Source of the DNA: an uncultured virus (IMG/VR IMGVR_UViG_3300038755_000021) | Taxonomy: Duplodnaviria; Heunggongvirae; Uroviricota; Caudoviricetes | IMG/VR virus record: IMGVR_UViG_3300038755_000021 | Location: 52,080 to 72,079 of that record | DNA: 20,000 nt | Reading direction: 5' to 3' (one strand) | In this document: positions 1 through 19,243 of the stretch, piece by piece | How positions within the stretch are numbered: the first letter of the stretch is position 1 | How the letters are laid out: the number at the start of each line of letters is the position of its first letter | Notes under the pieces: generated by a model | Database searches by the model: none | What the model saw: only the letters and a program-made list of their open reading frames with translations | What the model was told of the DNA's origin: nothing | Made by a program: the position numbers and the translations under genes

Positions 1-2
1 TG

Positions 3-1208
3 GAAGAATGGAGTAATAGATTAGGAAGATTTGCAAATGGTGATCCTACTGTTTCACAGACATCAATAACTCCTGCAGGTATGGGTATTGAAAAAATGAT
101 ATCTCCAGAAGGTTTGAAAGAACATGTTGAAAAGAAAAAACAAATAGATCAATCAAAACTTGACTATGAAAAAGTAAAAATGAATGAGTTAAGTGAAGAA
201 ATAAAAACTAAAGAGCAATTAAGAGAAGGTTTATATAATGCAGCCAAAGAGAGATTAAAAATACAAATTCCAAATGATCAATTAACTCCTAAACAAGATC
301 AAGATATTAGAGCAGAAATTGTAAGGCAAGATGTAGAATTAAAAATTGCTAAAACTAATAACGAAATAGAAAGTGCTAAATTAGATGCCGCAAAAACTGC
401 ACAACTAAGTTTTGAGAATGTTGGTTTAAAACTTAAAAATATTAGTCAGTGGTCAACTGCTGCTTCAGCAATTAATATGGCATTACCAGCAGGTATAAAA
501 GTATTAGAACAAGATCTTAGTGATTTAGATGCAGTAATAAAATCTTTAAAGCCAGAGCAACTAGAAGATTTTTTCAGATCTATTAAAAATAATAAAGAGT
601 TTAATAATTTATTCTCTACTTCTAAAGATGAGTTTACTGCAGATTATAGAAGTTACTTAGATTATGTTAAGAAACCAGGTAATGAAAATATTACTTATCC
701 AGAGTTTAAAAGTACTAATAGTTCTGTAACTAATTATGGTTATAGAAATGTTAATGGAGGTACTAATAATGTTGCAACAACAAAAGATGGTACTGAAGTA
801 AATGCTGCTAGAATTGGTGGTACATGGGTACAAAATGATTCTGAATTTAAAAAGAAATATAAAGACTCAGCTAGTTTTGTTGTAACACAAAACCCAGCAA
901 CAGGTATAGATACTCCTTATATGATGTTTTCTCATACTGATAGTGAGGATAGTAAGAAGTTATTACATGATATGACTAATTGGGCTTATGTAGATGAAGG
1001 TCTACTTTGGCTTGATTTAGATGTATCTGATTTTGATACTACAAAAGTTCCAGGTTCTTTCCATAAAGATGGTATATTATATGTACCAATTCCAGATACT
1101 CAAGGTGGAGTATCAACAAACAAAACAAACAACAAAGCAAGTTCAAAATCTGGAGCTCCAAATGTTGTTCCCAAACAAAGAAATTATGTTCCAGACTATG
1201 TAAAATAG
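3..1208 (+). CDS. 5'-truncated hypothetical protein, probable virion cargo/ejection protein
   Basis: The frame of ORF 81..1208 is open back to base 3 (EEWSNRLGRFANGDPTVSQTSITPAG-M), so the real start lies outside the window. Coiled-coil-like N-terminal half, low-complexity C-terminal tail, 6 nt upstream of the next giant gene. Function inferred from position only. Confidence 0.75.
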   Translation, partial: EEWSNRLGRFANGDPTVSQTSITPAGMGIEKMISPEGLKEHVEKKKQIDQSKLDYEKVKMNELSEEIKTKEQLREGLYNAAKERLKIQIPNDQLTPKQDQDIRAEIVRQDVELKIAKTNNEIESAKLDAAKTAQLSFENVGLKLKNISQWSTAASAINMALPAGIKVLEQDLSDLDAVIKSLKPEQLEDFFRSIKNNKEFNNLFSTSKDEFTADYRSYLDYVKKPGNENITYPEFKSTNSSVTNYGYRNVNGGTNNVATTKDGTEVNAARIGGTWVQNDSEFKKKYKDSASFVVTQNPATGIDTPYMMFSHTDSEDSKKLLHDMTNWAYVDEGLLWLDLDVSDFDTTKVPGSFHKDGILYVPIPDTQGGVSTNKTNNKASSKSGAPNVVPKQRNYVPDYVK

Positions 1209-1214
1209 AATTTA

Positions 1215-4200
1215 ATGAATGAAGAAATGGTAAAAGCCTTGTATGAAAAACTTGGCTTAAATGGAACTGTAGATTATGATAAATTTAGAACTGACATAGA
1301 GGGTAACCCAGCTATGCAAAAAGCTGTTTATGATAAATTAGGGTTACAAAATAAAAATGTTGATTATTCACAATTTGAAAAAGATTTAGGTGCCAATATT
1401 AGAACACCTTTACATGACTATGTTGCTGCATTAGAAAGTGATAATAATTATCAAGCATATAATCCAGATGGAGGAGGACAAGGTGCAGTAGGTGCTTATC
1501 AAGTAAGATATCAGAGTCATAACAAAAATGGTGATGTATCTAGAATAACTGGTACAAAAAATAGAGATGAATTTTATTCTGATTCTTATGCTCAGGATAA
1601 ATATATGTCTCATTTAATTGATCAATATCAACAACATCTTCCAGAACTTCAAAAGATAAATGAAGAAAGAGGATTAGGATTAAGTGATTGGGAATTGATG
1701 TATACAGAACATCATGAAGGTTATGATGGTGCTAAAAAATATCTATTAACTGGTACTTCAAAATTTGGTTCTGAAGAGACTTTAGATACAATGTATCAGA
1801 AAGGTAGGAAATATTTAGAATCAGGTGGACAAACATTAGCAACAAATAAAGGAAATGCATCTGCTCCAGTATCATCTTTAATATCCTTTGATACAGATGT
1901 AGATCAATCAAAATTTACAGATGAATTAGTTAAAAACCTTTATAAACAAAATGGGGGTAAAGGAGAAGTTGCACAAGCTGGTATACAAAAATATAATGGA
2001 CTTTTTGGTAAATATGACAATACTTATGCAATATCTGTAAGAGATACTTTAGGTGAAGATCATTTAATTAAATATGAAGATGTAGATTCTAGTTCTGATT
2101 TAGAAGGTGCGCAGAATAATTTAATAGAATTAGGTGGGGCCTTTGCAAATGGAATAGCTAAAGCAGGATTTCGTACTGTTGGATTATTAAAAGATCTTCA
2201 GGAATTAATTACTTCTGGAGATACTAGTTTAGATAAAGTATTTGATTATCAAGATAATCCTTTAACTAAAAAATTAACAGAAGCCTATAATACTAATATT
2301 GATCCCAGTCAATATTCTGATCAATATAAAAAATTATTAGAAGATCAGAAAATAGCAGAAGAAGGTGGGGATAGCCTTAATGCATTAGGTAAATCTTTAT
2401 CAAAAGTTTTTCATTCTGAATTCTGGAAAGACAATGGTTTAGAAACTGTTGGTAATTCATTATCCTTTTTTGTTCCAGGTGTTGTTGCAGGTAAAGCTGC
2501 TGGTGCTGCTGTAAAAGGAGCTAAGGCATTAGGTTTAGGAGAAAAGGGTACTAAAGTGTTAGCTCAACTTGGAGTTGGTGCAACTTTAAATGGAGCATTA
2601 GAAGCAGGTGCAGAAGGTGCTGAAACATTTAAAGCAGCATATGAGCACGGTATAAAAAAGGGTATGACAGAAGAAGAAGCTAGAGTAATGGCTTCTGATT
2701 ATGCTGCAGAGGTTGCCGCTACTAATATGCCAATATTAATGGCATCCAATGCTTTAGAGTTATTAGGAATTGGTGGAAAACTATTATCTGCTACGGGTTT
2801 AAAAAGATTTATTTACAATGCAGCAGCGACTGCTGTACCAGAAGGTCTTCAAGAAGGATTACAATTTGGTATTCAAGATAATGCTAAAAGATATGAAACT
2901 GAAAAATATGATCCAAATAAAGTTGGTCTTATAGATAACTTTTCTGGAGCAATGGGTGGAGCATTAAACTCTGCTTATAAAGGTTTAGTAAATGCTAGTT
3001 CAGAATTCTATGATAGCGTAGTAATGGGTGGATTAATGGGAGGAGCATTTGGAGCTCCTGGTGCTGCTAAATCTACATATGATTATTATAAAGTTGAAAA
3101 ACCTTTAGCTAAAGAAGTAAACTCTGTACTAGCTAATAGTTTTTCAGACATATATGAGAGAGATGCTGATGGTAATTTCATAGATGATAATGGAAAGATA
3201 AAAATAAATGGTTCTAAATTACAGTCACATCTTAATGGTTTACAAAATGAAAGATATTTAGCTGAGTTAGAATATCTTGCTGCTAAACAAGATAATGGTG
3301 AGGCAGTAAAGATGATACAAGGAAGTAAGATATCTAAAATTATACATGATTCTCTTGCATCTGGAAAAGATATAGACAATATTAAAAATGCAATAGATCA
3401 AGCATTTACTAAAGATGCTTATAAAGATAATAAACTAAAAGAACATTATTCTTTTGAAGAATATAAAGATTTTAGAAGCAATGCTGTAAAATTTTCAGAA
3501 GATGCATATAATGAAACATACTTTAATCCTCTATTAGCAAAACAAAGTGCAGGGTTTAAAGAAAATGTTTATTANNNNNNNNNNAATCTCTCTCAACAAA
3601 AAATGATTAATAATGAATTATCTAAATATAATTCTAAATTAGAGAGTCTTCCTGAAAAATTATCTCCACTTCAAAAATTAGAAAAAGAAGATCTTACAAC
3701 AAAGATTGAAGCAGTAACTAAATTCAAAGAGAATTTAGAAAGTGCTTATATTGATATTTTCAAAGGTGCTAAAAAAGATAAAAAAACTTCTCAAAAAGAA
3801 ACTAAAGCTGAAGAGCAAAAAATAGAAGTTAATCAAGGTTTACAAGAAGGTAAATCTCCAGAAGAAATTATCATAGATTCTGATAATCCAGAAGGAGCAG
3901 TAGATATATTACAAGAAGAAGCTAAAAAGAATACTTTAAATTCTCTTGATACTCTTAATTCTAAAAAAGAATATCAAGAAAAAGTTAGAACCCATCCTCA
4001 TTTGAGTAAAGAAATATCTGATCATTATAATTCTAGAATAGAAAAACAAAAATCAAATCAAAAAGAGATTAAGTCTGCTCAAGATTTAGTTGGAAGATAT
4101 GGAGAAGAAAATAGTCTATTAAAGGAACATGAAACAGATAATCTATTTTCTAATTTTAAAACTAGATTAGAAAATGAAGAAGGATTACAAGAAGAGATTA

Positions 4201-5522
4201 AGAATTATGAAACATTAAGAGATAATCCTAATCATACTTTTAAACCAAATCCTAAGTTTAAATTCTTAGGTCAACATATATTAGCTGGTGGAAATCTAGA
4301 TTCATATAGCTCTCTTTCAGCATTAGAACATAATATTGCTGATCCATTACTACAAGATAGTATTGATAACAAACCTATAAGTAAGACAAAAGAGGATAAG
4401 AGAAAGAATGCTAAAATATTAAAAGATAAACTAGTATCCTTACATAAAGAAGGTAAAGTCACCAAAGAAGAAGCTATTGGTTATATAGAAGAAGCTTTTG
4501 TTAATAATAAGATTACTAAAGCATCTAAAAATAAATTAATAGAAGATGTAAATACTCTTTTTGTTAAGAAGGATCCTAGAATACAACAGTTAATAGATTT
4601 AGGTTATTCAGAAGATCAAGCATTATTAGCTATTGAAAACGGTATTGCAGATGAAATAATATTAAAGAAGGGAAAATCTGATGTTTTATTTGAAGAAGGT
4701 CCTCCTATCATAACTCCTCTATTTATAGACACAGCTGTAGGTGCACAGGCTAGTAATCAAAATTTAGTACAAGTTGAATCTGTAACTCCAGATGGTAAGA
4801 AATCTTTACATACCATAAGTAAAACCATATTATTTGGTTCTAATGATATAGATGGTATGTGGTCTTCTTCTAAACAAGATATACTTTGTGATCATTTTAA
4901 AGTTCCTTTTGGATCTACTTTTAGAATAGTATCACAACCTTCTGCTTTCTATGAAAGTAATTTAGTTGAAACTAATAAAATTTTATCTACAGCAAAACCT
5001 GGAGATCAATTTTATTATGAAACAGATTATACTATATATAAAGATAAAAGTGATTTTGAAATCAATATAATATTTTATTCTAAAGATGGTAAAATAGTTA
5101 CAAAAGAAACTGAAGGATCTAAGAAACACACTGCTGGAGTTGTTAGAGCAAATAGTAATCCTGCATTAAATATTGATGAAGCAACAGAAATATCTAAACT
5201 AAGAGATAAACTTTTTACTGGAATTTCTACTACAATTCCTATAAAATTAAAATCAGTAATAAGAAAAGCTTCTTTGAATATAGGAAATTTAAGAGGGTTA
5301 ACTAAAGAAGAATCTAATAATGAGTTTGATGTTGTAATAGCAGAGTGGGAAGGTACAGTACCTAGATTTTCATCTAACCAGAGTGTTGGAGATACATATA
5401 GTCCAGCTGGAAAAGGAAGTATAAAAAGTTTTGTTCCAAGAATGATGGGTAAAGTATTCATGTTCCTAAAGTCTTGGGATAAGTCTGGTAATGAAAAAAA
5501 TATANNNNNNNNNNAGAATTAG
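1215..5522 (+). CDS. Giant virion protein, N-terminal part: lysozyme/transglycosylase-like domain + Gly/Ala-rich hydrophobic region + coiled coils (stop at 5520-5522 probably an artefact of the N gap)
   Basis: 1435-aa ORF with AALES-DNNYQAYN...GAVGAYQ motif at aa 71-96 and G/A-rich helices at ~2455-3070. The stop comes 5 nt after the gap at 5505-5514, while another frame is open from 5516. Confidence 0.8.
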   Translation: MNEEMVKALYEKLGLNGTVDYDKFRTDIEGNPAMQKAVYDKLGLQNKNVDYSQFEKDLGANIRTPLHDYVAALESDNNYQAYNPDGGGQGAVGAYQVRYQSHNKNGDVSRITGTKNRDEFYSDSYAQDKYMSHLIDQYQQHLPELQKINEERGLGLSDWELMYTEHHEGYDGAKKYLLTGTSKFGSEETLDTMYQKGRKYLESGGQTLATNKGNASAPVSSLISFDTDVDQSKFTDELVKNLYKQNGGKGEVAQAGIQKYNGLFGKYDNTYAISVRDTLGEDHLIKYEDVDSSSDLEGAQNNLIELGGAFANGIAKAGFRTVGLLKDLQELITSGDTSLDKVFDYQDNPLTKKLTEAYNTNIDPSQYSDQYKKLLEDQKIAEEGGDSLNALGKSLSKVFHSEFWKDNGLETVGNSLSFFVPGVVAGKAAGAAVKGAKALGLGEKGTKVLAQLGVGATLNGALEAGAEGAETFKAAYEHGIKKGMTEEEARVMASDYAAEVAATNMPILMASNALELLGIGGKLLSATGLKRFIYNAAATAVPEGLQEGLQFGIQDNAKRYETEKYDPNKVGLIDNFSGAMGGALNSAYKGLVNASSEFYDSVVMGGLMGGAFGAPGAAKSTYDYYKVEKPLAKEVNSVLANSFSDIYERDADGNFIDDNGKIKINGSKLQSHLNGLQNERYLAELEYLAAKQDNGEAVKMIQGSKISKIIHDSLASGKDIDNIKNAIDQAFTKDAYKDNKLKEHYSFEEYKDFRSNAVKFSEDAYNETYFNPLLAKQSAGFKENVYXXXXNLSQQKMINNELSKYNSKLESLPEKLSPLQKLEKEDLTTKIEAVTKFKENLESAYIDIFKGAKKDKKTSQKETKAEEQKIEVNQGLQEGKSPEEIIIDSDNPEGAVDILQEEAKKNTLNSLDTLNSKKEYQEKVRTHPHLSKEISDHYNSRIEKQKSNQKEIKSAQDLVGRYGEENSLLKEHETDNLFSNFKTRLENEEGLQEEIKNYETLRDNPNHTFKPNPKFKFLGQHILAGGNLDSYSSLSALEHNIADPLLQDSIDNKPISKTKEDKRKNAKILKDKLVSLHKEGKVTKEEAIGYIEEAFVNNKITKASKNKLIEDVNTLFVKKDPRIQQLIDLGYSEDQALLAIENGIADEIILKKGKSDVLFEEGPPIITPLFIDTAVGAQASNQNLVQVESVTPDGKKSLHTISKTILFGSNDIDGMWSSSKQDILCDHFKVPFGSTFRIVSQPSAFYESNLVETNKILSTAKPGDQFYYETDYTIYKDKSDFEINIIFYSKDGKIVTKETEGSKKHTAGVVRANSNPALNIDEATEISKLRDKLFTGISTTIPIKLKSVIRKASLNIGNLRGLTKEESNNEFDVVIAEWEGTVPRFSSNQSVGDTYSPAGKGSIKSFVPRMMGKVFMFLKSWDKSGNEKNIXXXXN
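1227..1388 (+). repeat. Tandem duplicated ~29-aa protein motif
   Basis: MVKALYEKLGLNGTVDYDKFRTDI versus MQKAVYDKLGLQNKNVDYSQFEKDL. Confidence 0.8.
1404..1823 (+). other. Lysozyme-like (lytic transglycosylase/muramidase fold) domain
   Basis: Putative catalytic Glu in ES (E74, nt 1434), then N-Y-x-A-x-N, A-x-G-x-Y-Q, 'EF..DSYAQD..M' and 'HHEG..GAKKYL', the motif order seen in phage lysozyme-like domains. Confidence 0.75.
3575..3584. other. Assembly gap (10 N), reading frame preserved
   Basis: Run of 10 n. Confidence 0.99.
5505..5514. other. Assembly gap (10 N), apparent frameshift
   Basis: Run of 10 n; the upstream frame is open into the gap and a different frame is open immediately after it. 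Confidence 0.99.
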
Positions 5523-7720
5523 AAACTAAAAAAGTTTCCGAAGTTCCTAGATTTAGACAGAATATATTAAATATATTAAAAAATGTAGAAGCTCAAAAAG
5601 ATGAAAAATCTGCTAAAGAAACATCTAAAGAGGCTTGGAAAGATGTTACAAAGATTGTAAGACTTAGAACACCAGATTCTAAATTTGATTCTGTAAATGT
5701 TAGTAAAGGTATAAAGGCTGGTATGACTAATCCAAGAAAAGGTGTTGGTCCAGTATTTACATATTTCTTTGAATCATCTCCGGGTAAACCAAAAGGTTTT
5801 CTTACTAAAAAAGATGGTAAAACATATAAAGGATTAAGTGCAGAAGAATTAGTTGAGTTGATAGAAGATCATAGAATTAATGTGCCACATGATAATGCTA
5901 AAGATTTCATAAACGATAACCCAGATGTATTATTAACAGATCTTGATGTAAATTCAACACAGGATAATCAGTTAGTATTTGATAATGATATAGAAAGTTT
6001 ATCAAATACACAAATAGATTCTGGTACCAGAGTTAATTCTAGAGCGAAACCTGTTAAGTTCAAAGTAACAGAGAGTTCTGAAAAAGAACAAAAAACTAAA
6101 GACTTATCTTATATTAAAGATAGATTTGCTAATCTTGGTATTGTAGTTTCAAATAAAGAATTAAATAAGTTAGCTGAAATATTTGGAGCTAATACTGGTA
6201 CAGTATGGGGAGCATTTCATGATGCAGTATTATTTTTAAATGAAAATGCTGGAATTAAGTTTCAGAAACATGAAGCGTTTCACGTTTTGTTTAATGTTTA
6301 TCTAACTCCTGAACAACAAAAAGTAGTATTAACAGAAGCTTATGATAAATTTGGAAAAGAATTAGGTATTAATAAAGAGGAATTTGAACAATGGTTAAAT
6401 AAACCTACAACTAACACTGCTAAATTTAAACAAGGAAATTTAAATGAAGTTGATTATATATTAAAAGCTGTAGATATTTTACAATCAGATAATGCTAAAC
6501 AAATATTTGAAAAAGGTAAAAAGAATAATTGGACTTTAGATAAAATATTAACAGAACTTAAAATACCTAAAGAACAAAAAGAATTATTATTAAATTTAAA
6601 TATTACAGATAGAGAACAGTTAGCTTTAGAATTAGCTAGTAATTATAGTTATACTGTTGAGATTAATACTGCAACAAAAAAGAAGTCTTCTCAAACTTTT
6701 GGTAAACCATATCAATTATTGGATAGTGAATTTCCTAATACTTGGCGTGTAGATACTGGTACATGGGCTATTGATTTTACAACAGAGGAGGAGGCATTAA
6801 ATTATATTGCTAGAAATAATAAGCAAGAAAATACTCAATATTATTCTAATATAACAGTTAATGAAGATTTTTATAAAAATAATCCTGATTGGGAATATAA
6901 AGAACAAAGAATAACTACACCATTAATTAAACCTTCTATTAAAGGTCATGCTCAATTTGCACAAGATAATGATATAGGTTGGTTTAGAGCTTGGTATAAT
7001 AAAAAAACAGGAGAGGTACATGTACTAGAAGTACAATCTGATTTATTTCAGAAAGGTAGAGATAAAGAATTTTTAGTAGATAATTATAAACATACTCCAG
7101 GAGATAGAAATTTTAATGTTACTTATGAAGGCAAGGAATATAAAGTTGGAACTATGGGGGGTATGCAAAGAGTTGTTATTTATAAAACTCTTGAAGGACA
7201 AGTGCATTATGAAAATCCAAAACAAGATTGGCTAACACAAGAAGAAATACCACAAGGACTAAAAGATATTGTATCTAATAAATTTAATAGTTTAAAACAG
7301 GAAGTATTAACTCAAAATAAATCTAATAAGGAGAATCAATTCCTACAACTTCTAAACAAAGACTCTAATTGGGTTACATTCTTTGTTAAATCTATTATAC
7401 AAGATAGTGCTAAGAAAGGTTATGAGAAAGTATTATTTCCTACTGGTAATACTGCAAGTAAAGTAGAAGGTCATACTACTTTAGAAGAGTTTAAGAAGCA
7501 AAAAGAAGATAGGATTAAGGAGCTTGAAGGTAAATTAGATACTTTAAATACATTAAAACCTAATGAAGATTTATCACCTATTACTTTTAAGCTAGGTAGT
7601 AGTAATGAAACTTTTTATTATAAAAATAAAGGATTTGAACAAGCTTTAAAAACTTATAAAGAACCATTTGAAAAAGAAATAAAACAACTTAAAGAGGAAC
7701 TNNNNNNNNNNAAAGAGTAG
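5516..7720 (+). CDS. Giant virion protein, middle part: zincin metalloprotease N-half (HEAFH) plus inserted 'LEVQSD' module
   Basis: The frame of ORF 5723..7720 is open from 5516 (ELETKKVSEVPRFRQNIL...KAG-M). WGAF at ~6206, HEAFH at 6269-6283. The stop at 7718-7720 lies just after the third gap. Confidence 0.8.
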   Translation, partial: ELETKKVSEVPRFRQNILNILKNVEAQKDEKSAKETSKEAWKDVTKIVRLRTPDSKFDSVNVSKGIKAGMTNPRKGVGPVFTYFFESSPGKPKGFLTKKDGKTYKGLSAEELVELIEDHRINVPHDNAKDFINDNPDVLLTDLDVNSTQDNQLVFDNDIESLSNTQIDSGTRVNSRAKPVKFKVTESSEKEQKTKDLSYIKDRFANLGIVVSNKELNKLAEIFGANTGTVWGAFHDAVLFLNENAGIKFQKHEAFHVLFNVYLTPEQQKVVLTEAYDKFGKELGINKEEFEQWLNKPTTNTAKFKQGNLNEVDYILKAVDILQSDNAKQIFEKGKKNNWTLDKILTELKIPKEQKELLLNLNITDREQLALELASNYSYTVEINTATKKKSSQTFGKPYQLLDSEFPNTWRVDTGTWAIDFTTEEEALNYIARNNKQENTQYYSNITVNEDFYKNNPDWEYKEQRITTPLIKPSIKGHAQFAQDNDIGWFRAWYNKKTGEVHVLEVQSDLFQKGRDKEFLVDNYKHTPGDRNFNVTYEGKEYKVGTMGGMQRVVIYKTLEGQVHYENPKQDWLTQEEIPQGLKDIVSNKFNSLKQEVLTQNKSNKENQFLQLLNKDSNWVTFFVKSIIQDSAKKGYEKVLFPTGNTASKVEGHTTLEEFKKQKEDRIKELEGKLDTLNTLKPNEDLSPITFKLGSSNETFYYKNKGFEQALKTYKEPFEKEIKQLKEEXXXXKE
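7702..7711. other. Assembly gap (10 N), apparent frameshift
   Basis: Run of 10 n; ...KQLKEE(L) before the gap and RVETEGFGALKPIY... after it in the RNAP frame. Confidence 0.99.
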
Positions 7721-10700
7721 AAACAGAAGGATTTGGTGCTTTAAAACCTATTTATAATTTCTATGAAAATACTGTAACAAACATTCTTAATAAAACATAT
7801 GGTAAAGATAATGTAAAACTTATTACTGATGAATATGGTAATACTTGGAATGAAATAACAATCAATGAAAAATCTTTAGATACAATACGATTATCAACAA
7901 AACAAAACAGTTTCTATCAAAAACAAAATCCACTAGTAAGATTAGAAGAAAAACTAGCAGAAATGTTTGAAGACTTTTCTGTTGAAAATGTTGGTATTGT
8001 ATCTTCTGAATTTAAAAAAGCATACCCAGAGATATCTAAATTCTTTGATGAAATCTATAAATTTATATATGATGTATACAGAAGATTAAAACCTTATTTC
8101 ACAGATAAACTATCAATACAAGATATATTTTATCAACTAGAAAAGAATACATTTAATAAGAAGATATTTAATGAAAGATTAACTTCTTATCAAAAATTAT
8201 CTCAATATACTCCTAAATTTAAAATAGATACATTAAACCCAATAGAGGTTAAAAGATATTCCAGGTTTATTGCTACAGATACTCTAGAACAAGCTTTATG
8301 GAAATATGAAGCTACTAATGTAAATGGAGAGATTAAATCTAAATATGGCTTCTTAAATGATTTAACAAAGGTTAAAAGAAATGAATTCTTACAAGATTTT
8401 ATTGATAAACTTGATACATTAGTTGCTAATCATTTTAAAGAATTAGGTAATCCTGAAGTTGGTGCAAAGATCAGTGAAACATTAAAGTCTAATAAAGTAG
8501 AATTTTTAAAGTATATCTTACAAGATATAAATACTCTATATGATACTCATTATTATATGGAGGAAACAGAAGAAGATGGGGAAAAGATTAATCTAATTAG
8601 AGAGACAAATGTAAATCCAACGCAAAACATAAAGGGTAAACTAAAGGAGTATTTACATAGAATTCCTATCAGAACAAAAGTTAATGGACAATACCAAGAG
8701 GTTATAGATGAAGATTTTGGTATTGAGAAAAGACATGACTTTGAACAAGTATATAATAGATTATTACAGGGATTATCTGATAATCCTACTCCAGAAATGT
8801 TCTGGGAGAAACTTCAAGATTTAGCTACTAAATTTGATTGGGCTGATCATGTAAATGAACATATTAAAGCTACATTTATAGATAGCCCAATAGAGTCTGA
8901 GTTGTTTAGAGTCTTATATGCTAAGACTGGGGGTATGAGAAATATTAACTTTATTTCTGAAACAAGAAAGAAAGGTAGCTCTAAATTTTTTGAAGCAGGT
9001 AAAAGAAATGTTGCTAATGAATTAATAGGACTATTATCTGAGAAATTTGATAATGGAGAAGCAGATGTAGCAGAGTTAAAAAAGCTAAAAGATACAGTAA
9101 AAGATGGTAAACTTTCTGAAAAAGATATATATCCATTATTAACTAATTTTGGATTTGATATAACTGAAGATGAAGCTAGTTATCTATTTTCAGAGGATAA
9201 ACATAATATACAAACATTCTTTAATTTTCTAGTTAAAAATATTGATGATAAAAATTTTCATCCTTTTAGATCAAGAGACAATGAGTTAAATAAGATATCA
9301 AGAAAGATGGCAAATTTAGTTGCTAAATTACCTTCTAAACATACAATGACAGTATTAACTGTTAAAAATGAAAATGAATATATACATCAAGCAAATAACT
9401 TTGTTTCTAAATTCTTTGCTAAACTAAAAGTTAATTCTCAAGAGTTATATAATAGAGCACAAGGTTCTTTAATTCATGAAGGTATTTCACTTTATAATAG
9501 TCTTACTGGACAACAGTTTAGAGATAAGTTTAATATTCAATATGATTTAGGGTTTAAAGAAGCTGGAAGAGGTGATGGAGTAGAATATAAAGAGTATTTA
9601 TTTTCAGATTTATTAACACACGATTTTAATGCATATCTTACTCAGGTAGCAGAAGATAAAAGGATTAGAGTACCATTGCCTACATTTTCTGATGCAACAA
9701 GTAGAGCTTATTTAGTTGCTCCTTCAAAATCAGATGTAGAAAGATTAACTGTTCCATTAGTTAAAGCAGAAATGGAAAGGATTAAATATTGTAGAAAAAA
9801 TAAAACTGGTTATAGAAACTTTGATATTAATGGTACACACTTTGTTATATTTCCTTTTTTAGAGAAATATAGTAAAACATTATTTAATACTAATCCTGAT
9901 TTATTAGATGATTACATTGAAGGTTTATTAAAAGATCATATATCAGATAGAATAAAATTATATACTGATACTTTAGTAAAAGAAGGAGTATTAGAATATG
10001 TAGAAGATAAAGATAAACATTTAGTATTAACTCCAACTGATAATGTTGCTAAGAACCTTATTAGTGGAAAGAGTTTAAAACTTGTTATTGAGAAGTATTA
10101 CAAAAATCGTTGGTTTTATAATAATCAATTAATACCTATGTTAGCAGGTGATCCTGCATTTTATGGTAATTATAAATCATCTAAAAGTAAATATGATTAT
10201 AAGAAAATATCAGATTCATTATTAAAGAGGATGAAGGAATTACACTCTCCTAAAGAGGATGCAATCATTGTTGATGATAATAATAATCCTAAAACTATAA
10301 GACAATTAGTAATTGCTGATATATTTAAAGACTCCTCAGAAGAAGAGATAGCTGAATTTAAACAGATATTTCCAGGTTTAAAATGGGAAGGACATAACTT
10401 AACAGATGGTCAAGGTATTACTACTTTAGATTTTAATAGACAAGTAAGAAGTGCTTATGGTGAATTAAATAAAGAAGACTTAGCAGAATATGAAAAGATA
10501 AAAGCTGGTAAGCATGGAAAAACAACTCCTGGATTTACAAAACCTTATTATTATAATCTAGAAACTAGAGATAATCTTTTATATCCTTTACAAGAAAAAA
10601 GCTCTGAATTTCCTTTAATTCCTGCTGAAGCATTCCTTACTAAGAATGGTAAAGTTGAATTCCCAGGAAGTCCAACTGACTTTAATAAATATGCTAGACC

Positions 10701-13700
10701 AATATTAGCTAAAATGTTATGGTTAATGAATGGTGCAGGTGATCCAAATAGAGCATTTGATAAAATAGTATTTGAATCTGTTATTAAAACAGATATCAAT
10801 GAGAAAAAGTTATTATCTATAGATGATATTAATAATTTAGATTTTAAGAAAGTATATTCTTCAATAGAAGAACACTCAGCCGCAGATTATGGTAGACAAC
10901 AAGTTGTACCAACTGATAAACATTATAATAATAAACAGAAATATGGTTCTCAAGCTAGGGTTTCTATAACAGCAGATTTAAATGAAGATGTTGTAGTTAA
11001 TGGTAAAAGTTATACTCCAGCAGAAATTAGAGAGTTACATGACTCTATTTTAGTTGCAAATATTGAAGATTCAAAAGATAAACTTAAAACTAAATTTGCA
11101 AATTTAGATTCTTTTATTAAAGTATTACGTGAAGGAGCTGTAAACAGAAATAAGTCTGTTGATCAGTTAATGGCTTATGAAATACAAGAAGATGGTTATC
11201 CTGCAGTACCAATTGATTATCCTTTGACATCAGTAGAAAATCAAAAATTAGCAAATGCTGAAACAAAGAAAGCTATTATTACACCTGTTCCTGGTGGAAC
11301 ATTTGTAAATAGATCTTCTATAGGTTATGCAGACGATTTAGAAGTAAAAAGAGTTTATAAAAATGGTGTTGCAGTAGCTATTGAATATGTAGAAGTAGCA
11401 ATCCCTGCACATAATAGTGCCTTATTACTATTAGCAGATAAAAATGGTGTAATTGATTTTAAAAAACTAAAAGAAGAATATCCTAATTTTGACAAACTAT
11501 TAGAAGGATTTGGATATAGAATTCCTACAGAGGATAAATATTCAATGTATCCTATAAGAATTAAATATCTTCTTCCTCAAAATACAGATGCTACAATTGT
11601 TCTTCCAAAAGAAGCTCCTACCATTACTGGTTTAGACTTTGACGTAGATAAGATGTTTGTAATGTTTAGAGCCTTTAAAATTAAGAAAGGTAATTTCTCA
11701 ATGTTTACAAAGTCTATTAATGATTATGCTATACAACATAATCTATTAAAAGAAAATGGAGAACCAGTTATATATTCTGAAGAGGAAGCAAGGGATCTTT
11801 TTAATAAAATGTTAATAAATGAACAGTCTAAAACTGAGACTGAAAGGATCTTGATAGATTATATGAAACAAGATTTTAATGAATTAAAAAATCTTATTAA
11901 GATTGAGGAATTAGGATATATAGAACCTAGTATGGATAATACATTATCCAGGCATAATCTTATGATGGATATTATTTTAGCAATTACAAAAACTGAGTCT
12001 TATGCTAAATCATTTCTTGAAGGTGGTAATTCAGATGTATTAGTAGAAAATATTGAAAGATTAAAAGATTTTCCATTAGATAAAAATATTCCAGAGGATG
12101 TAATTGATCCTTTACACCAGGATTATAATTCAAAAAAGGCTATTGTAGGAGGTAATATTATTGGTATTGCTGCTTCACATAATAAACATCATTTTGCAAT
12201 TCAAGGTCAACAATTTAGTTCTCTAAATCCATTAAATTTTTTAGATGGAAAAACATATCGGAGTTTAACAAAACAAGAAGGAGTAGATGGTAGGATATCT
12301 AAATTCATATCTTCAATATTATTTGCTTCTACAGAACATATTAAGAAACCTTTATTAGATCAATTAGGTATAACAGCTCAGAATGTTTCTATATTCATTA
12401 CAGGATTAAGATTGGGAATACCTTTTAGTGAACTTTCTACATTATATAGAAATCCTGCTGTAATAGATTTATTTAATGGTTTAAGTAAAATAAAATTTCC
12501 TACAACTAGAGATTTTGATAATTATATCCGTGATACATATGAATTAGATACTAAATCTATGGGATGGTTTAGAAGTTTAGAAACTCAAGATTTATCTAGT
12601 AAACAATTATTAGAGTCACTTTCTAATAATAACCATGATTTAAATTTAGTAATTTTATCAAAATTACGTACATTATTTGATATTTCAGTTGATTTAGGAG
12701 CAGTAATGAGAGCTGGTAAATTTGATACTGAAGATAGCTTTGGTCCATTATTATATGATAATTTAAAATCTGTAGGTGATATAGAATATATATATAAGAA
12801 AATTAAAGCTAATAAAATATCCTTAAGTGGTATTGAAAATATTTTACCAAACATAGGTGTAGTTGATGATAAATATGTAATGACTCCAAGTAATTTAAAA
12901 CTTAATGATGCATATATATCATTGATTGTGCAACAATTAAATGGATTAAAATCTATATTTGGATTCTTATCTGAAAACTATAACGTGGTAACAGATAAAG
13001 TCTTAGAAGTAACTGGTTTAGAAAGATTTGATGTCAAAAAGTTACAAACTGTACATAATGCTGTTAGAACTGCTATTGCACAACATGTATTAAAGTTCTC
13101 GCATAAAAATGTAGTACAAGTAAATAAAGAGTTTAAGAAAATCAAAAAAGATAAAGTATTTAATGAAAAATATCCTAACTTAATAAAGTTAATAGATATA
13201 AGATCTATAAGAGGTCAGGCTGTTATACAAAAAATAACTCCTTATAAAATTGATAAAGGTACTACGTCTTTAATTAAATCAGAATGGGCAACAGCAATGG
13301 CTGATCCTGTATATTCAGAATTTGCTAGAAATTTAGCAACATATTCTTTGATTACATCTGATTTCTCATTTAGAAAAAATTCTTTTTCTCAATTTGTGCC
13401 TGAATATGAATATTTAACAGGTACAGTTGAAGGTAAAAGAGTTAGGGAGTATTTTAATAAAATTGCAGATGTAACAGCTTTTACAAAAGAAGAGGATGGT
13501 GATTTAGCATTGTTAATAATCCAAAACAAACCTGAACTTACTAGATATATAGATGTAGATAAAGATGCAGATACTGTAGAAAGCTTTAGAATATCTACTG
13601 GAGAAACTTCTTCAGTGCACGTAAAGAATATAATTAAATTAAAAGGTAATGCTAGTGGATACACTAAAGCAAATAGTGAAGAACCACTAGAATATATCCA

Positions 13701-14382
13701 TACTACAGTCTTTTATTTACATAGGAAAGTTCCAATACTTTATAAGTATAATGGTGATAGTGTATATGAAATGGTAATACTACCATCTAATCCTCTTTTA
13801 TATTCTGTATATACTAAAGAAACTGAAGTATTTTATCCACTATTAAAAGTAAATAAAGTTGAAGATAGGGATTTTACTAAAGATAAAGAGTATGAAATGG
13901 GTCCAAGTAAAGAAATGGTAGATGATGGTTTTTTTGTGGATGAACTTGGTGCTACTGATAAAGAACCTGATTTTAGTGATGTTAATGATTTTACAGATGA
14001 GATGGGAGCTACTGATATTAATGATATAATTAATGCAGCAGAAAAGAGTGGTGTTCCTACTAAGATTGTAGATGGATTCTTTACTGAAGAAGAGAGTGCT
14101 CCTGAATCATATTATGAAATAGATCAATATAAAATCAGAATTACACCAGATGGTAAAATGTATTTTAAAAATGGCGAAGAGGTAACTGATACTACAATAC
14201 AAAATAAAGTTTTAGTACAAAAAGAGAGTAAAGAAAAAACAGCTAAAACCTCACATTATAACAAAACAGATTATGTAATATTATCAGATGGTAGAATAAT
14301 ATCTACTGCTAATTTTCAAGAAAAGACCTTCACTGAGCAAGTAAGAACTTTTATTATTAAGAATGCTAAAAAAATGTGTTAA
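7714..14382 (+). CDS. Virion-packaged DNA-dependent RNA polymerase, crAss-like/phi14:2 gp66 family (C-terminal part of the giant gene)
   Basis: 2139-aa ORF whose frame is open from 7714. TDGQG at 10402-10416, GYRIPT at 11512-11529, catalytic DFDVD(K) at 11635-11649, matching the DFDID variant of the two-barrel RNAP DxDGD loop known from crAss-like phages. Confidence 0.92.
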   Translation, partial: RVETEGFGALKPIYNFYENTVTNILNKTYGKDNVKLITDEYGNTWNEITINEKSLDTIRLSTKQNSFYQKQNPLVRLEEKLAEMFEDFSVENVGIVSSEFKKAYPEISKFFDEIYKFIYDVYRRLKPYFTDKLSIQDIFYQLEKNTFNKKIFNERLTSYQKLSQYTPKFKIDTLNPIEVKRYSRFIATDTLEQALWKYEATNVNGEIKSKYGFLNDLTKVKRNEFLQDFIDKLDTLVANHFKELGNPEVGAKISETLKSNKVEFLKYILQDINTLYDTHYYMEETEEDGEKINLIRETNVNPTQNIKGKLKEYLHRIPIRTKVNGQYQEVIDEDFGIEKRHDFEQVYNRLLQGLSDNPTPEMFWEKLQDLATKFDWADHVNEHIKATFIDSPIESELFRVLYAKTGGMRNINFISETRKKGSSKFFEAGKRNVANELIGLLSEKFDNGEADVAELKKLKDTVKDGKLSEKDIYPLLTNFGFDITEDEASYLFSEDKHNIQTFFNFLVKNIDDKNFHPFRSRDNELNKISRKMANLVAKLPSKHTMTVLTVKNENEYIHQANNFVSKFFAKLKVNSQELYNRAQGSLIHEGISLYNSLTGQQFRDKFNIQYDLGFKEAGRGDGVEYKEYLFSDLLTHDFNAYLTQVAEDKRIRVPLPTFSDATSRAYLVAPSKSDVERLTVPLVKAEMERIKYCRKNKTGYRNFDINGTHFVIFPFLEKYSKTLFNTNPDLLDDYIEGLLKDHISDRIKLYTDTLVKEGVLEYVEDKDKHLVLTPTDNVAKNLISGKSLKLVIEKYYKNRWFYNNQLIPMLAGDPAFYGNYKSSKSKYDYKKISDSLLKRMKELHSPKEDAIIVDDNNNPKTIRQLVIADIFKDSSEEEIAEFKQIFPGLKWEGHNLTDGQGITTLDFNRQVRSAYGELNKEDLAEYEKIKAGKHGKTTPGFTKPYYYNLETRDNLLYPLQEKSSEFPLIPAEAFLTKNGKVEFPGSPTDFNKYARPILAKMLWLMNGAGDPNRAFDKIVFESVIKTDINEKKLLSIDDINNLDFKKVYSSIEEHSAADYGRQQVVPTDKHYNNKQKYGSQARVSITADLNEDVVVNGKSYTPAEIRELHDSILVANIEDSKDKLKTKFANLDSFIKVLREGAVNRNKSVDQLMAYEIQEDGYPAVPIDYPLTSVENQKLANAETKKAIITPVPGGTFVNRSSIGYADDLEVKRVYKNGVAVAIEYVEVAIPAHNSALLLLADKNGVIDFKKLKEEYPNFDKLLEGFGYRIPTEDKYSMYPIRIKYLLPQNTDATIVLPKEAPTITGLDFDVDKMFVMFRAFKIKKGNFSMFTKSINDYAIQHNLLKENGEPVIYSEEEARDLFNKMLINEQSKTETERILIDYMKQDFNELKNLIKIEELGYIEPSMDNTLSRHNLMMDIILAITKTESYAKSFLEGGNSDVLVENIERLKDFPLDKNIPEDVIDPLHQDYNSKKAIVGGNIIGIAASHNKHHFAIQGQQFSSLNPLNFLDGKTYRSLTKQEGVDGRISKFISSILFASTEHIKKPLLDQLGITAQNVSIFITGLRLGIPFSELSTLYRNPAVIDLFNGLSKIKFPTTRDFDNYIRDTYELDTKSMGWFRSLETQDLSSKQLLESLSNNNHDLNLVILSKLRTLFDISVDLGAVMRAGKFDTEDSFGPLLYDNLKSVGDIEYIYKKIKANKISLSGIENILPNIGVVDDKYVMTPSNLKLNDAYISLIVQQLNGLKSIFGFLSENYNVVTDKVLEVTGLERFDVKKLQTVHNAVRTAIAQHVLKFSHKNVVQVNKEFKKIKKDKVFNEKYPNLIKLIDIRSIRGQAVIQKITPYKIDKGTTSLIKSEWATAMADPVYSEFARNLATYSLITSDFSFRKNSFSQFVPEYEYLTGTVEGKRVREYFNKIADVTAFTKEEDGDLALLIIQNKPELTRYIDVDKDADTVESFRISTGETSSVHVKNIIKLKGNASGYTKANSEEPLEYIHTTVFYLHRKVPILYKYNGDSVYEMVILPSNPLLYSVYTKETEVFYPLLKVNKVEDRDFTKDKEYEMGPSKEMVDDGFFVDELGATDKEPDFSDVNDFTDEMGATDINDIINAAEKSGVPTKIVDGFFTEEESAPESYYEIDQYKIRITPDGKMYFKNGEEVTDTTIQNKVLVQKESKEKTAKTSHYNKTDYVILSDGRIISTANFQEKTFTEQVRTFIIKNAKKMC
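13921..14100 (+). repeat. Acidic low-complexity linker with short internal repeats
   Basis: DELGATD / DEMGATD and DGFFVDE / DGFFTEE repeats in a D/E-rich stretch. Confidence 0.7.
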
Positions 14383-14564
14383 TGGTTTGTGATATAAATT
14401 CATTTAGAGTATCTACTGAGAGAAAGGTTACTGCTGCTGTAAAAGAGATTGGTTATGATATTGAGCATAGTCAATTTGAGAGATCTGGTGCTAATAAACG
14501 TGCAGCAGATACCAATGAAATGTTAGGTTTTGTTGGAGTATATTTAGACATTTACCTAATATAG
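14382..14564 (+). CDS. Short ORF (MVCDINSF...), probably the true N-terminus of the downstream giant protein, separated by a frameshift
   Basis: ATG at 14382 overlaps the RNAP stop (TAATG). The downstream gene's frame is open from 14519 and overlaps this ORF. Confidence 0.6.
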   Translation: MVCDINSFRVSTERKVTAAVKEIGYDIEHSQFERSGANKRAADTNEMLGFVGVYLDIYLI

Positions 14565-14650
14565 AGAAACAAGCTGGTGCTGAATTTGATCTTCAAGCAA
14601 GATTAGAAAGAGAAGCTACTACTCCAGATGAACAGTTATTTCAGATAGAC

Positions 14651-18772: not shown

Positions 18773-19122
18773 GATGCAGTGATTGAAGAAACCATAACAA
18801 AGAAAGATATGTTCCAATTTGTAGTAAATCCTACTCTGTTTAAGTATTTTTTACGTTCTTCTTCAGGTATTTTTTTATCATATTTCCAGGGATCTACATA
18901 GGTAATATTATATCTTCTCCAAGACCATATAATAGTATCACCTTCTTTACTACCATTACCTCCTATTTCTGCTCTGACATAGGGTAAACCAGAACCTTTT
19001 ACTTTATGATTTAACATAGCATATCCTAAAAGACCTTCCTGATCTTTATAGTTTAAGTAGATTGGAAGTATTTTACCTGCTTTTACTTGATGAATTGTGG
19101 GTTCTTTGTAATATTTTTTCAT
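18769..19122 (-). CDS. Hypothetical protein (117 aa)
   Basis: Stand-alone minus-strand ORF not shadowed by a + strand gene, with an AT-rich leader; its stop overlaps that of the convergent gene (TTAA). Confidence 0.75.
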   Translation of the reverse strand: MKKYYKEPTIHQVKAGKILPIYLNYKDQEGLLGYAMLNHKVKGSGLPYVRAEIGGNGSKEGDTIIWSWRRYNITYVDPWKYDKKIPEEERKKYLNRVGFTTNWNISFFVMVSSITAS

Positions 19123-19133
19123 ATAAATAGCTA

Positions 19134-19141
19134 TAGTTTTG
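19134..19141 (+). promoter_or_regulatory. Candidate Bacteroidetes sigma-A -7 element (TAnnTTTG)
   Basis: TAGTTTTG(C) is an exact consensus match in the only real intergenic region, ~100 nt upstream of ATG 19244. The nearest upstream TTTG (19105-19108) is 25 nt away, longer than typical. Confidence 0.35.
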
Positions 19142-19156
19142 CGACTTTATTTACTG

Positions 19157-19166
19157 TAAAAATACG
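19157..19166 (-). promoter_or_regulatory. Candidate -7-like element for the minus-strand gene
   Basis: The minus strand reads CGTATTTTTA (TAnnTTTA, one mismatch to TAnnTTTG), ~35 nt upstream of ATG 19122. Confidence 0.3.
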
Positions 19167-19243
19167 TAATTATTTTCATATTTTTAAAATTATTTCTAAT
19201 TTTATGGTCCCTTGTAAGAGGTGTCCTTATTTAATAAGAGTTT

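Follow-up and report, generated by a model that had tools for sequence, protein, structure and literature searches.

Positions 1215-14382 (+) of the window, that is, of the whole 20,000-nucleotide stretch of DNA that was analysed, very probably hold a single multidomain RNA polymerase gene of an uncultured crAss-like phage, in which the runs of 10 N are placeholders left by scaffolding. The three open reading frames (ORFs) called there are one gene, and the splits between them are assembly gaps only. By comparison with better known phages, the product appears to be a virion cargo or polyvalent protein, with an RNA polymerase as its C-terminal part. The source genome is, as judged from its sequence, that of a crAss-like phage. 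Terminase, portal and major head PHROGs follow one another in the record, and the polymerase block lies after the tail genes. The major capsid protein matches 72 records from the Flavobacterium FpV4 group, crAssphage and genera of the Crassvirales, all of them at less than 60% identity.

Table 1. Features of the giant gene, in window coordinates.
Feature	Position	Strand	Details
Giant gene	1215..14382	+	4,381 codons and a stop, with 1, 5 and 2 bases in place of the 10-N runs
Short repeat leader			N-terminal, before the transglycosylase
Predicted lytic transglycosylase domain	1401..1814	+	residues about 63-200
Gly/Ala-rich, moderately hydrophobic region	2412..3074	+	residues about 400-620, inside the gp67-homologous stretch
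Gap 1	3575..3584		10 N stand for 1 base; frame kept
Lys/Glu-rich helical stretch and further conserved segments	3585..6022	+	no assigned family
Gap 2	5505..5514		10 N in place of 5 bases; joins frame 0 with frame 2
HExxH module (candidate zincin)	6110..6385	+	HEAFH 6269-6283; conserved Glu274 codon 6335-6337
Very conserved domain, function unassigned	6401..7893	+	spans gap 3
Gap 3	7702..7711		10 N in place of 2 bases (TG); joins frame 2 with frame 1
Predicted virion RNA polymerase core	9511..13563	+	catalytic DFDVD 11635-11649
Gene end	14377..14384	+	last codon TGT (Cys); TAA 14380-14382; ATG of the next cargo gene overlaps (TAATG)

A single reading frame across the assembly gaps

The ORFs were called at 1215..5522, 5723..7720 and 7963..14382, and the window contains three 10-N runs, the first of which lies inside ORF 1 (Table 1). 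A preliminary description of this DNA had proposed one chain of about 4,400 residues that is interrupted only at such gaps, and the frames behave as it stated. The frame of ORF 1 enters gap 2 and meets a TAG at 5520-5522. That of ORF 2 is free of stops from 5516, 69 codons upstream of the called ATG, then enters gap 3 and ends at a TAG at 7718-7720, and that of ORF 3 is likewise free of stops from 7714, 83 codons upstream of its called ATG. Both stops are found no more than 10 nt after a gap. With a stop probability of 0.093 for a random codon at the base composition of the window, the chances of 69 and 83 stop-free codons are 1.2e-3 and 3.1e-4, respectively.

Closure of the gaps, which had been suggested as a check, was carried out on contigs of other assemblies and gave lengths of 1, 5 and 2 bases, so that a single frame is restored, with no frame break at gaps 2 and 3. 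Gaps 1 and 2 are bridged by contigs of the public runs X3, X5 and X6, which leave out 9 and 5 letters, respectively. The letter at gap 1 is a T in the related locus L002, giving TAT (Tyr), and the related protein P0004 has Tyr at the same codon; the identity of this base is taken from these two relatives and not from the window's own strain. Since the codon is TA plus one base, an A or a G at this position would be a stop. The join at gap 2, the one least trusted in the preliminary description, is closed by the metagenome contig L068, both flanks of which are identical to the window; it reads GCAGT (..K N I A V E L E T..), as does L002. At gap 3, a contig of run X1 stops at 7701 with the loose letters TGAAAGAGTAGAA, which are TG plus window 7712-7722. 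L002 also has TG there, and the resulting Leu-Glu are exactly the residues needed to complete the family consensus QLKQELERVE.

Homologs that span the junctions were found at three levels of divergence, and they read through. L002 is gap-free, without N, and forms a single gene of 4,742 codons without a stop; it is collinear with the window across all three junctions, at 93-100% identity over most of the region (96% at 1-6680 and 93% at 7822-13960). P0004, a 4,611-aa protein with a different source, is collinear with the four pieces of the chain at 81, 69, 55 and 65% identity, and has exactly one residue at gap 1 and two at gap 2. In the more distant L053 (31-36% identity), one gene of 5,438 codons covers all four pieces. 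Moreover, the last match before gap 3 and the first match after it lie in one open frame at 61 of 61 loci, the two belonging to the halves of the conserved domain. The span of this domain gives independent support for the join, of the kind that the preliminary description had sought in zincin motifs on both sides of gap 3. The motifs themselves proved to be misplaced: HEAFH and Glu274 both lie about 1,400 bases upstream and there is no HExxH past the gap, so a zincin motif is ruled out as the bridge, which is provided by a separate conserved domain.

Breaks that do separate genes carry a mark of their own in this module. Cys stands at both facing ends in 27 of 27 distinct breaks (counted behind ORFs of at least 1,400 aa), and also at both breaks of phi14:2. 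The real break of the window, at 14380, reads ..KKMC / MVC.., the next cargo gene starting with Met-Val-Cys; L002 and L055 share this arrangement of the gene end. The gap junctions of the window's chain have neither Cys nor ATG.

It is thus highly improbable that the called ORFs represent three distinct genes, with real stops and new starts concealed in the gaps. The two TAG codons close behind gaps 2 and 3 would agree with such genes, as would the lack of the gap 1 letter from the window's own strain. However, these stops sit in frames that are vacated once the gaps measure 5 and 2 bases, no ATG occurs for 69 and 83 codons past the gaps though the frames are open, the frame is uninterrupted in relatives at 96%, about 65-80% and about 33% identity, and the conserved domain continues across gap 3 in every one of the 61 loci. 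Because of the bridging contigs and L068, separate genes are refuted at gaps 2 and 3. Even less credible is a chimera of contigs from different phages joined at the N runs. In its favour, the source assembly is shallow, with a word depth of about 7x and contig ends at each of the three gaps, and identity to L002 falls in window 6680-7807. This low-identity stretch is inside a piece and not at a gap, however, and L002 is collinear over the three junctions. The bridging contigs refute the chimera: X3 contigs that differ in 0-1 letters span gaps 1 and 2, L068 spans gap 2, and the X1 contig continues from before gap 3 to beyond it.

Domain organisation

The N-terminal domain, described earlier as a lysozyme, is supported as a predicted GH23-type lytic transglycosylase, which upholds the earlier claim and makes it more precise. 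A candidate catalytic Glu74 is found in ALESDNNY, followed by GAVGAYQV and later by HEGYDGAKKYL. The domain has 110 homologs at E<=1e-3, with the family consensus ESGGxYxAxNP..SGAVGKYQF, in which the Glu is near-invariant (55 aligned homologs). The profile of the domain family matches the phiKZ gp144 lytic transglycosylase (3bkh, 9xps; E 4e-7) in two stretches, with the Glu-Ser catalytic motif and an H-F-G-x-G-x-A motif; Glu74 aligns with the IES of gp144, and the E-S motif lies at the start of the domain. Searched as a single sequence, the N-terminal domain gave no match to a solved or curated transglycosylase, and Pfam Phage_lysozyme2 reached E 0.037 and 14.6 bits, under its cut-off of 28.2. 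In phiKZ, gp144 is a free endolysin of 260 residues, whereas the domain in the window forms the N-terminal part of a cargo protein of 4,381 residues. In T7, the transglycosylase of gp16 has a comparable placement at the head of a cargo protein. L053 carries a lambda-type lysozyme at the same position (3d3d, E 1.7e-11).

The membrane-type region of the preliminary description stands as a moderately hydrophobic, Gly/Ala-rich stretch with up to 47% Gly plus Ala per 40 residues, within a segment homologous to gp67 of phi14:2 (residues 392-665 align with 152-456 of gp67; E 2e-12, 25% identity). The two Kyte-Doolittle peaks, each over 19 residues, are 1.42 and 1.24, but none of the 19-residue hydropathy windows in the region reaches 1.6, the usual level of a transmembrane helix. 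A membrane role for this region is a conjecture. The Lys/Glu-rich stretch and the segments that accompany it gave no Pfam or PHROG family match; parts of them are kept in L053 and L019 (pieces B 471-640 and C 1-143; 32-33% identity).

HEAFH, which occupies residues 252-256 in the middle piece, is the sole HExxH anywhere in the chain, and its conserved partner Glu274 stands 18 residues past the second His. When 13 relatives were aligned, His83 and Glu84 were invariant and Glu105 was present in at least 90%. In 7 of these 13, Glu takes the place of the second His, which argues against a strictly conserved protease. Neither the HExxH profile searched against the PDB nor Pfam searched on the 13 members returned a zincin. 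The AlphaFold model of the module is all-helical (pLDDT 66); with it, Foldseek gave no match at E<=0.001, and the best VIA Z, 5.8, was to unrelated helical proteins. The zincin of the earlier account therefore stands as a candidate by its motif, a conserved HExxH plus Glu, but found no zincin match in the profile and fold searches.

The domain across gap 3 is recognised by the motifs SIKGHAQF, GWFR, EVQSDLFQKGR, NWVTFFVKSIIQDSAKKGYEKVLFP.GNTASKVEGH, QLK.ELERVE.EGFGALKPIYNFYEN and TDEYGNTWNE. Searches with it yielded no family in Pfam or PHROG, nothing clear in the PDB, and no match among 50,697 phage records. Its model is poor (pLDDT 56.7), and the fold search with it returned no assignable fold; modelling and fold searching, which the preliminary description had proposed per domain, thus gave no assignable fold for this domain and no zincin match for the HExxH module. 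Relatives of the conserved domain carry ART-PolyVal, Kinase-PolyVal, NADAR, Zeta_toxin/AAA_33 and further domains of this kind, and cpYpsA and FtsK_gamma also occur among relatives.

The C-terminal part is supported, by profile and translated searches, as a predicted two-barrel virion RNA polymerase of the phi14:2 gp66 family, in agreement with the polymerase first described. A polymerase profile of 5 sequences matched 6vr4_A in the PDB, which is gp66 of phi14:2, over gp66 residues 814-1784 (E 1e-63), and in this match the DFDVD (residue 1308 in the last piece) pairs with the DFDID of the structure. In a tblastn search, 105 records of crAss-like phages matched at a 'putative RNA polymerase' (best E 2e-28), crAss001-like records included. 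Pfam and PHROG searches of the window's chain itself gave no family match to any part.

The same order of domains recurs in single chains. Among 231 proteins, a set that is biased by the way it was gathered and of which 3 are the window's own pieces, lytic transglycosylase, HExxH, conserved domain and RNA polymerase follow one another in five chains, and lytic transglycosylase, HExxH and RNA polymerase in four.

Discussion

Giant chains with a fused polymerase have already been reported for some phages of this group. A 'huge polyprotein' in which the polymerase is fused with the orthologs of its neighbours, and which is likely cleaved, was noted in some crAss-like phages (Yutin et al. 2018, as summarised in 10.1101/2020.03.07.982082). 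In that summary three proteins are fused, whereas in the window there are two, and the gp65-like protein is encoded by a separate gene. The order gp67-gp66-gp65 of phi14:2 is the same in the window (gp67-like, polymerase, gp65-like), where the next gene matches gp65 (E 5e-4), and in both phages Cys is confined to the facing termini. However, gp67 and gp66 are separate in phi14:2, whereas the window has the gp67-like and gp66-like parts in one chain and adds the conserved domain, a transglycosylase at the N terminus and an HExxH module that precedes the polymerase. The HEIMH of phi14:2 is in gp65, after the polymerase. The transglycosylase and conserved-domain profiles gave no match to phi14:2 gp65-gp68, and the HExxH profile gave none to the HEIMH of gp65.

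Polyvalent proteins have been described as injected giants, with an RNA polymerase, an HExxH metallopeptidase and a lysozyme or transglycosylase in one chain (Iyer et al. 2017, PMC5512222). The protein of the window likewise joins unrelated domains in one giant chain, and the set of domains varies among its relatives. Pfam MPTase and LPD families were looked for in its domain pieces, in whole segments and in whole relatives, and none was found in the window's protein. The polymerase of N4 is a T7-like single-subunit enzyme, whereas that of the window would be of the two-barrel gp66 type. In crAss001, the giant proteins gp47, gp49 and gp50, which are associated with the polymerase, are virion cargo by mass spectrometry, and it has been proposed that they are ejected partly unfolded (Bayfield et al. 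2023, PMC10172136). They are three separate cargo proteins, with no transglycosylase fusion in the description given there, whereas the window has one chain. The record of phi14:2 gp66 bears the note 'MS/MS', as a virion protein. Because these homologs, phi14:2 gp66/gp67 and crAss001 gp47/49/50, were found in virions, we infer for the giant protein a role as cargo, its ejection and a part in early transcription; its enzyme activities and its cleavage are likewise proposed by comparison with known systems.

Self-cleavage by the zincin is a proposal already in print (10.1101/2020.03.07.982082). Another reading, which is possible though we consider it rather doubtful, is that the single chain is not self-cleaved but delivered whole, like the N4 virion polymerase, and that the HExxH, if active, targets peptidoglycan or host proteins. 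The N4 enzyme carries an HExxH domain and is reportedly packaged unprocessed (PMC5512222), the HExxH being placed in its C1 domain (PMC13434306), and the ejection protein gp28 of cyanophage A4 combines a lytic transglycosylase and a metallopeptidase (PMC12002296). Digestion of peptidoglycan is given as an alternative in the same preprint that proposes self-cleavage (Drobysheva preprint, 10.1101/2020.03.07.982082). Delivery of the whole chain would also agree with the loss of the second His in relatives, and a search of the window chain for a recurring junction motif found none. On the other hand, the same module is divided between 2-3 genes in relatives, with break points that vary, a sign that its parts can function separately, and cleavage is the reading preferred by the authors of the preprint (10.1101/2020.03.07.982082).

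With cleavage included, the giant protein may act as follows. The capsid would pack it as cargo, and it would leave through the tail before or together with the DNA. The transglycosylase would open the cell wall, and the Gly/Ala-rich part may, as a conjecture, aid the crossing of membranes. The chain might be cleaved once it has been packaged or delivered, perhaps by the HExxH module that it carries, which is also conjectural. Inside the cell, the polymerase would transcribe the first genes of the phage.

Results

Three gaps within one gene

The three gaps that divide the giant gene of the window are not gene boundaries, and four lines of evidence agree on this. The viral metagenome record is 72 kb long, with a completeness rating of 59%, and the window is its final 20 kb. 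The window holds three runs of N, each of exactly 10 N. Read from the window sequence, the first frame enters gap 2 and then meets a TAG, the second frame is open almost from the end of that gap, enters gap 3 and meets a second TAG, and the third frame is open beyond it, as the preliminary description had observed. Ahead of the called ATGs of the second and third ORFs lie 69 and 83 open codons. Stretches this long stay open by chance with probabilities of 1.2e-3 and 3.1e-4 respectively, at 0.093 stops per random codon. The false stops being TAG in both cases, its use as a sense codon was considered and rejected: the old frames close again immediately, and the gap lengths account for everything.

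Coordinates of the features discussed (window positions unless marked G000, the phage's own record)
Feature	Position	Detail
Giant gene	1215..14382 (+)	4,381 codons with gaps closed
Called ORFs	1215..5522; 5723..7720; 7963..14382	
Gap 1	3575-3584	10 N, standing for 1 base
Gap 2	5505-5514	10 N, standing for 5 bases
Gap 3	7702-7711	10 N, standing for 2 bases
False stop after gap 2	5520-5522	TAG, first frame
False stop after gap 3	7718-7720	TAG, second frame
Second frame open from	5516	
Third frame open from	7714	
N-terminal repeat motif	1215-1400	two copies, ~28 residues
Wall-enzyme segment replaced in L053	1401-1814	L053 4238-4441
Sole HExxH	6269-6283	HEAFH
Conserved domain	6401-7893	spans gap 3
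Inserts in relatives	~6990; ~7430	equivalent positions
Segments diverging from L002	6680-7807; 13960-14112	75% identity or unalignable
34 bases absent	~14538	between two short TATAT repeats
Facing cysteines	14377-14390	..KKMC, then MVC..
Next cargo gene, start region	14382-14660	
Called start of next cargo gene	14651	
Fourth N run	G000 28002-28011	10 N, inside ORF 26422-28068
Terminase large subunit ORF	G000 15289-19428	1,379 aa

When public runs were searched with the sequence from gap 2 to gap 3, 20 of them, from 12 studies, contained it, and contigs of four runs were aligned on window 3400-7900: X1, the likely source; X3, from a different sample of the same study and differing by 0-1 letters; and X5 and X6, from other studies. 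The X3 contigs give no cover at 7326-7627, and the cover of X5 also has holes. Contigs of X3, X5 and X6 cross gap 1 with 9 letters omitted and gap 2 with 5 letters omitted, and a contig of X1 stops matching at 7701 and continues with TG and then window 7712-7722 (TGAAAGAGTAGAA). The bridging contigs of other assemblies therefore show that the 10-N runs stand for 1, 5 and 2 bases, exactly the lengths that take the frame from 0 to 0, from 0 to 2 and from 2 to 1. The X1 contigs break at all three gap positions, which accounts for the placeholders set there by the scaffolder.

Related sequences read the same way. At gap 2 the metagenome contig L068, whose flanks on either side are identical to those of the window, has GCAGT, which translates as ..K-N-I-A-V-E-L-E-T... 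The close relative L002 has no N, is 96% identical to the window over 1-6680 and 93% over 7822-13960, carries T, GCAGT and TG at the three gaps, and encodes a single gene of 4,742 codons with no stop. In the stored protein P0004 (4,611 aa, of different origin) the four pieces set by the gaps follow one another collinearly at 81, 69, 55 and 65% identity; gap 1 corresponds there to a single residue (Tyr), gap 2 to two residues. In the distant relative L053 (31-36% identical) a single 5,438-codon gene covers all four. Among the 61 related loci fetched with the middle piece, one open frame crosses gap 3 in every case, from the last match before the gap through the first ~50 residues after it; the window fragments meet within the nearly invariant QLKQELERVE.EGFGALKPIYNFYEN and, by alignment, lack exactly Leu-Glu.

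The single chain that had been proposed is thus borne out by bridging contigs and by homologs across the junctions, at 786+1+640+2+728+2+2222 = 4,381 codons. The codon at gap 1 is TA plus one base, the letter in this strain being presumed from L002 (T) and P0004 (Tyr). A near-identity DNA search with the whole gene against 50,697 phage records found no match, and a related-locus search with the N-terminal 330 aa returned the L002 contig only.

Outside two divergent segments L002 and the window are 93-100% identical, and L002 also carries extra stretches of ~160 and ~125 residues; this local mosaic surrounds the site at which endonucleases insert in other relatives. The fourth N run of the phage's own record, outside the window, is probably the same scaffold-gap artefact.

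Cysteines at true gene breaks

Cysteines lie almost exclusively at the ends by which neighbouring cargo proteins face each other. At the phi14:2 locus, gp67 ends in ..NTIC, gp66 starts with MAC.. and ends in ..QECK, and gp65 starts with MSC..; these terminal cysteines are the only ones in the three proteins. Among the related loci, Cys falls within both the last 8 and the first 8 residues at each of the 27 distinct breaks that follow an ORF of 1,400 aa or more, and at just 1 of 8 breaks that follow shorter ORFs. The giant gene truly ends in ..KKMC with a TAA stop, and an overlapping ATG (TAATG) opens the next gene, MVC.., while the gap junctions hold neither a Cys nor a start codon. This sequence pattern fits fusion at the gaps. 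It also fits a hypothetical end-to-end disulfide between neighbouring cargo proteins; such a bond has been seen in cyanophage A4 (PMC12002296).

The next cargo gene is related to phi14:2 gp65, and its true start is the ATG overlapping the giant gene's stop. L002 and a second related locus (L055) possess 34 bases that are missing from the window, so the first 52 codons are out of frame with the body of the gene; the absence reflects a genuine deletion or else an error of assembly.

Domains of the giant chain

Residues 1000-1600 of the last piece match 'putative RNA polymerase' in 105 crAss-like records (best E 2e-28). A profile of 5 sequences finds 6vr4_A, phi14:2 gp66, with E 1e-63 over gp66 residues 814-1784, and the DFDVD of the window aligns on the DFDID of that structure, which supports the virion RNA polymerase of the preliminary description.

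For the N-terminal domain Pfam gives Phage_lysozyme2 only (E 0.037), and a sub-threshold Transglycosylas hit in 1 of 25 scanned homologs. An exhaustive HMMER search with residues 51-220 yielded 110 homologs at E<=1e-3, and the consensus of a 55-row alignment is ESGGxYxAxNP..SGAVGKYQF. The profile matches the phiKZ gp144 lytic transglycosylase (3bkh, 9xps) with E 4e-7, including the Glu-Ser and a second motif; the supposed lysozyme is accordingly upheld as a predicted GH23-type transglycosylase like gp144. L053 has in its place a lambda-type lysozyme (3d3d/1am7, E 1.7e-11), not a GH23-type transglycosylase, and the flanks of the swapped domain are conserved between L053 and the window. The chain thus retains a wall cutter as its first enzyme despite the swap. 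Before it, the start of the chain bears two copies of the motif ..LYEKLGL..VDY..F..D.., also present in L053, which could be a packaging or docking signal; the MNEEM start is common to P0004, P0089 and P0012.

Residues ~400-620 contain up to 47% Gly+Ala. Two 19-residue hydropathy windows there score 1.42 and 1.24, and none reaches 1.6. Residues 392-665 are homologous (E 2e-12) to phi14:2 gp67, a virion protein whose gene lies just before that of the polymerase. A membrane role for this part is conjecture.

The zincin of the preliminary description stands as a motif: an alignment of 13 relatives shows HEAFH and Glu274 to be conserved, 7 of the 13 having Glu in place of the second His. Searches found no zincin, whether by profile against PDB and Pfam on the 13 aligned members or by Foldseek and VIA wide on an AlphaFold model (pLDDT 66). 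A putative zincin is assigned from the motif together with published accounts of these phages and of polyvalent proteins. Zincin motifs had also been placed on both sides of gap 3, but the sole HExxH precedes the gap and none lies past it. The module has no detectable homology to the HEIMH site of phi14:2 gp65, and the K-x-S-S-[YF] junction motif is absent across the giant chain. Whole-piece scans of the four pieces found no Pfam or PHROGs family, Pfam on the whole giant ORFs of four relatives (L002, L053 in its first half, L022 and L003) gave nothing for the window protein, and single-sequence PDB searches of the pieces found nothing.

The domain spanning gap 3 is distinct from the zincin, and no other part of the chain is as conserved, its segments being 60-94% identical in phages whose polymerases are ~25% identical to that of the window. 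It belongs to no Pfam or PHROG family (none was consistent across 26 members), tblastn against 50,697 deposited phage genomes found no match, its profile found none in phi14:2 gp65-68, and the protein atlas places it in unnamed viral clusters only. Against PDB the profile hits only 6n7m_A (E 0.006), over ~50 residues round the gap-3 motif; an AlphaFold model of the version from related locus L006 (26 rows) has pLDDT 56.7, with which VIA wide recovers a helical hairpin only (best Z 8.4), an uninformative match. ParBc_2 (E 0.06), weak and present in 1 of 26 members only, was dropped. The domain is nevertheless common in viral metagenomes: its two short motifs are matched by more than 577 contig stretches, and 198 proteins of 2,600-8,300 aa match the L002 stretch holding it and the preceding pieces. 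These proteins carry varying extra domains (ART-PolyVal, Kinase-PolyVal, NADAR, cpYpsA, FtsK_gamma, Zeta_toxin/AAA_33), which is the signature of the 'polyvalent proteins' described by Iyer et al. 2017 (PMC5512222).

Inserts interrupt the domain at two places in relatives (L038, L039, L041, L049, L050, L051, L056 and L058), and GIY-YIG homing endonucleases make up 8 of 10 insert ORFs scanned; the window has no insert.

Architecture among relatives

Four profiles were run on 231 stored proteins, a set biased by the two gathering searches and including the window's own pieces as 3 members. Transglycosylase, HExxH, conserved domain and polymerase stand, in that order, in one chain in 5 of the 231 (P0004, P0010, P0012, P0020 and P0089; 4,603-5,086 aa), the same order without the conserved domain occurs in 4, and HExxH, conserved domain and polymerase occur together in 18. 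The polymerase core is in frame with the conserved domain in 9 of 61 loci; elsewhere, among the loci at which a core could be located, the polymerase is mostly the ORF just upstream of the conserved domain. From these varied architectures it follows that the modules are shuffled, fused and split freely in the group.

Phage identity

Outside the window the record carries, one after the other, genes for terminase, portal and major head protein. The head protein matches 72 phage records, every one below 60% identity, among them the Flavobacterium FpV4 group, crAssphage, Bacteroides crAss-like phages and named Crassvirales genera. Runs containing this DNA are labelled wastewater, activated sludge, sediment and freshwater. 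By analogy with these phage relatives, our guess for the host would be a member of Bacteroidota. The terminase large subunit ORF matches in two halves (residues 91-470 and 960-1364), and its unmatched middle may be an intein or other insert.

Discussion

Fusions of polymerase, metallopeptidase and lysozyme are described among N4-like polymerases by Iyer et al. 2017 (PMC5512222), and fused giant polyproteins of crAss-like cargo, with cleavage proposed, appear in the preprint of Drobysheva et al. (10.1101/2020.03.07.982082), which cites Yutin et al. 2018. A narrow literature search on crAss-like zincins and polyproteins turned up no description of this particular five-part chain. We file the window chain as a further example of the already known giant fused polymerases.

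With one reading frame and its homologies established, the course of delivery can be proposed from homologs found in virions. Virion mass spectrometry and an ejection model exist for crAss001 cargo (PMC10172136), and the notes of the phi14:2 record place homologs in virions. The giant protein would be packed as cargo and would exit via the tail partly unfolded; the transglycosylase would open the wall, and the polymerase would begin early transcription. That the chain is cut into parts, whether by its HExxH module or by other means, is conjecture, in line with the proposal of the crAss-like preprint. By analogy with N4, whose polymerase is reported (PMC5512222) to be delivered uncleaved, passage as one intact chain would be about as likely.

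It is possible, though we think it improbable, that the whole ejected cargo forms one ordered thread, whose N-to-C order follows the barriers, whose end is Cys-Cys-linked to the next cargo protein, and whose conserved domain is a new essential activity of the entry machine. The order would run from the wall cutter through a Gly/Ala-rich membrane-active part, the HExxH module and an enzyme-like conserved domain to the polymerase, and an end-to-end link from ..KKMC to MVC.. would extend it. Fusing or splitting genes would then change nothing, because the parts would be chained either way.

For annotation, 10-N scaffold gaps cut a 13-kb gene into three 'genes' and so created false stops and false starts. 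Other viral metagenome records will show this artefact too, and giant cargo genes should be read through such gaps. The strongly conserved domain, which lacks a known family, fold and cultured representative, is a target for structural work. The window provides a well-documented case of a crAss-like phage that has its wall cutter and its early transcription enzyme in one chain, and its domain order, common to at least 5 other single chains, offers a concrete substrate for tests of cleavage and of ejection order.
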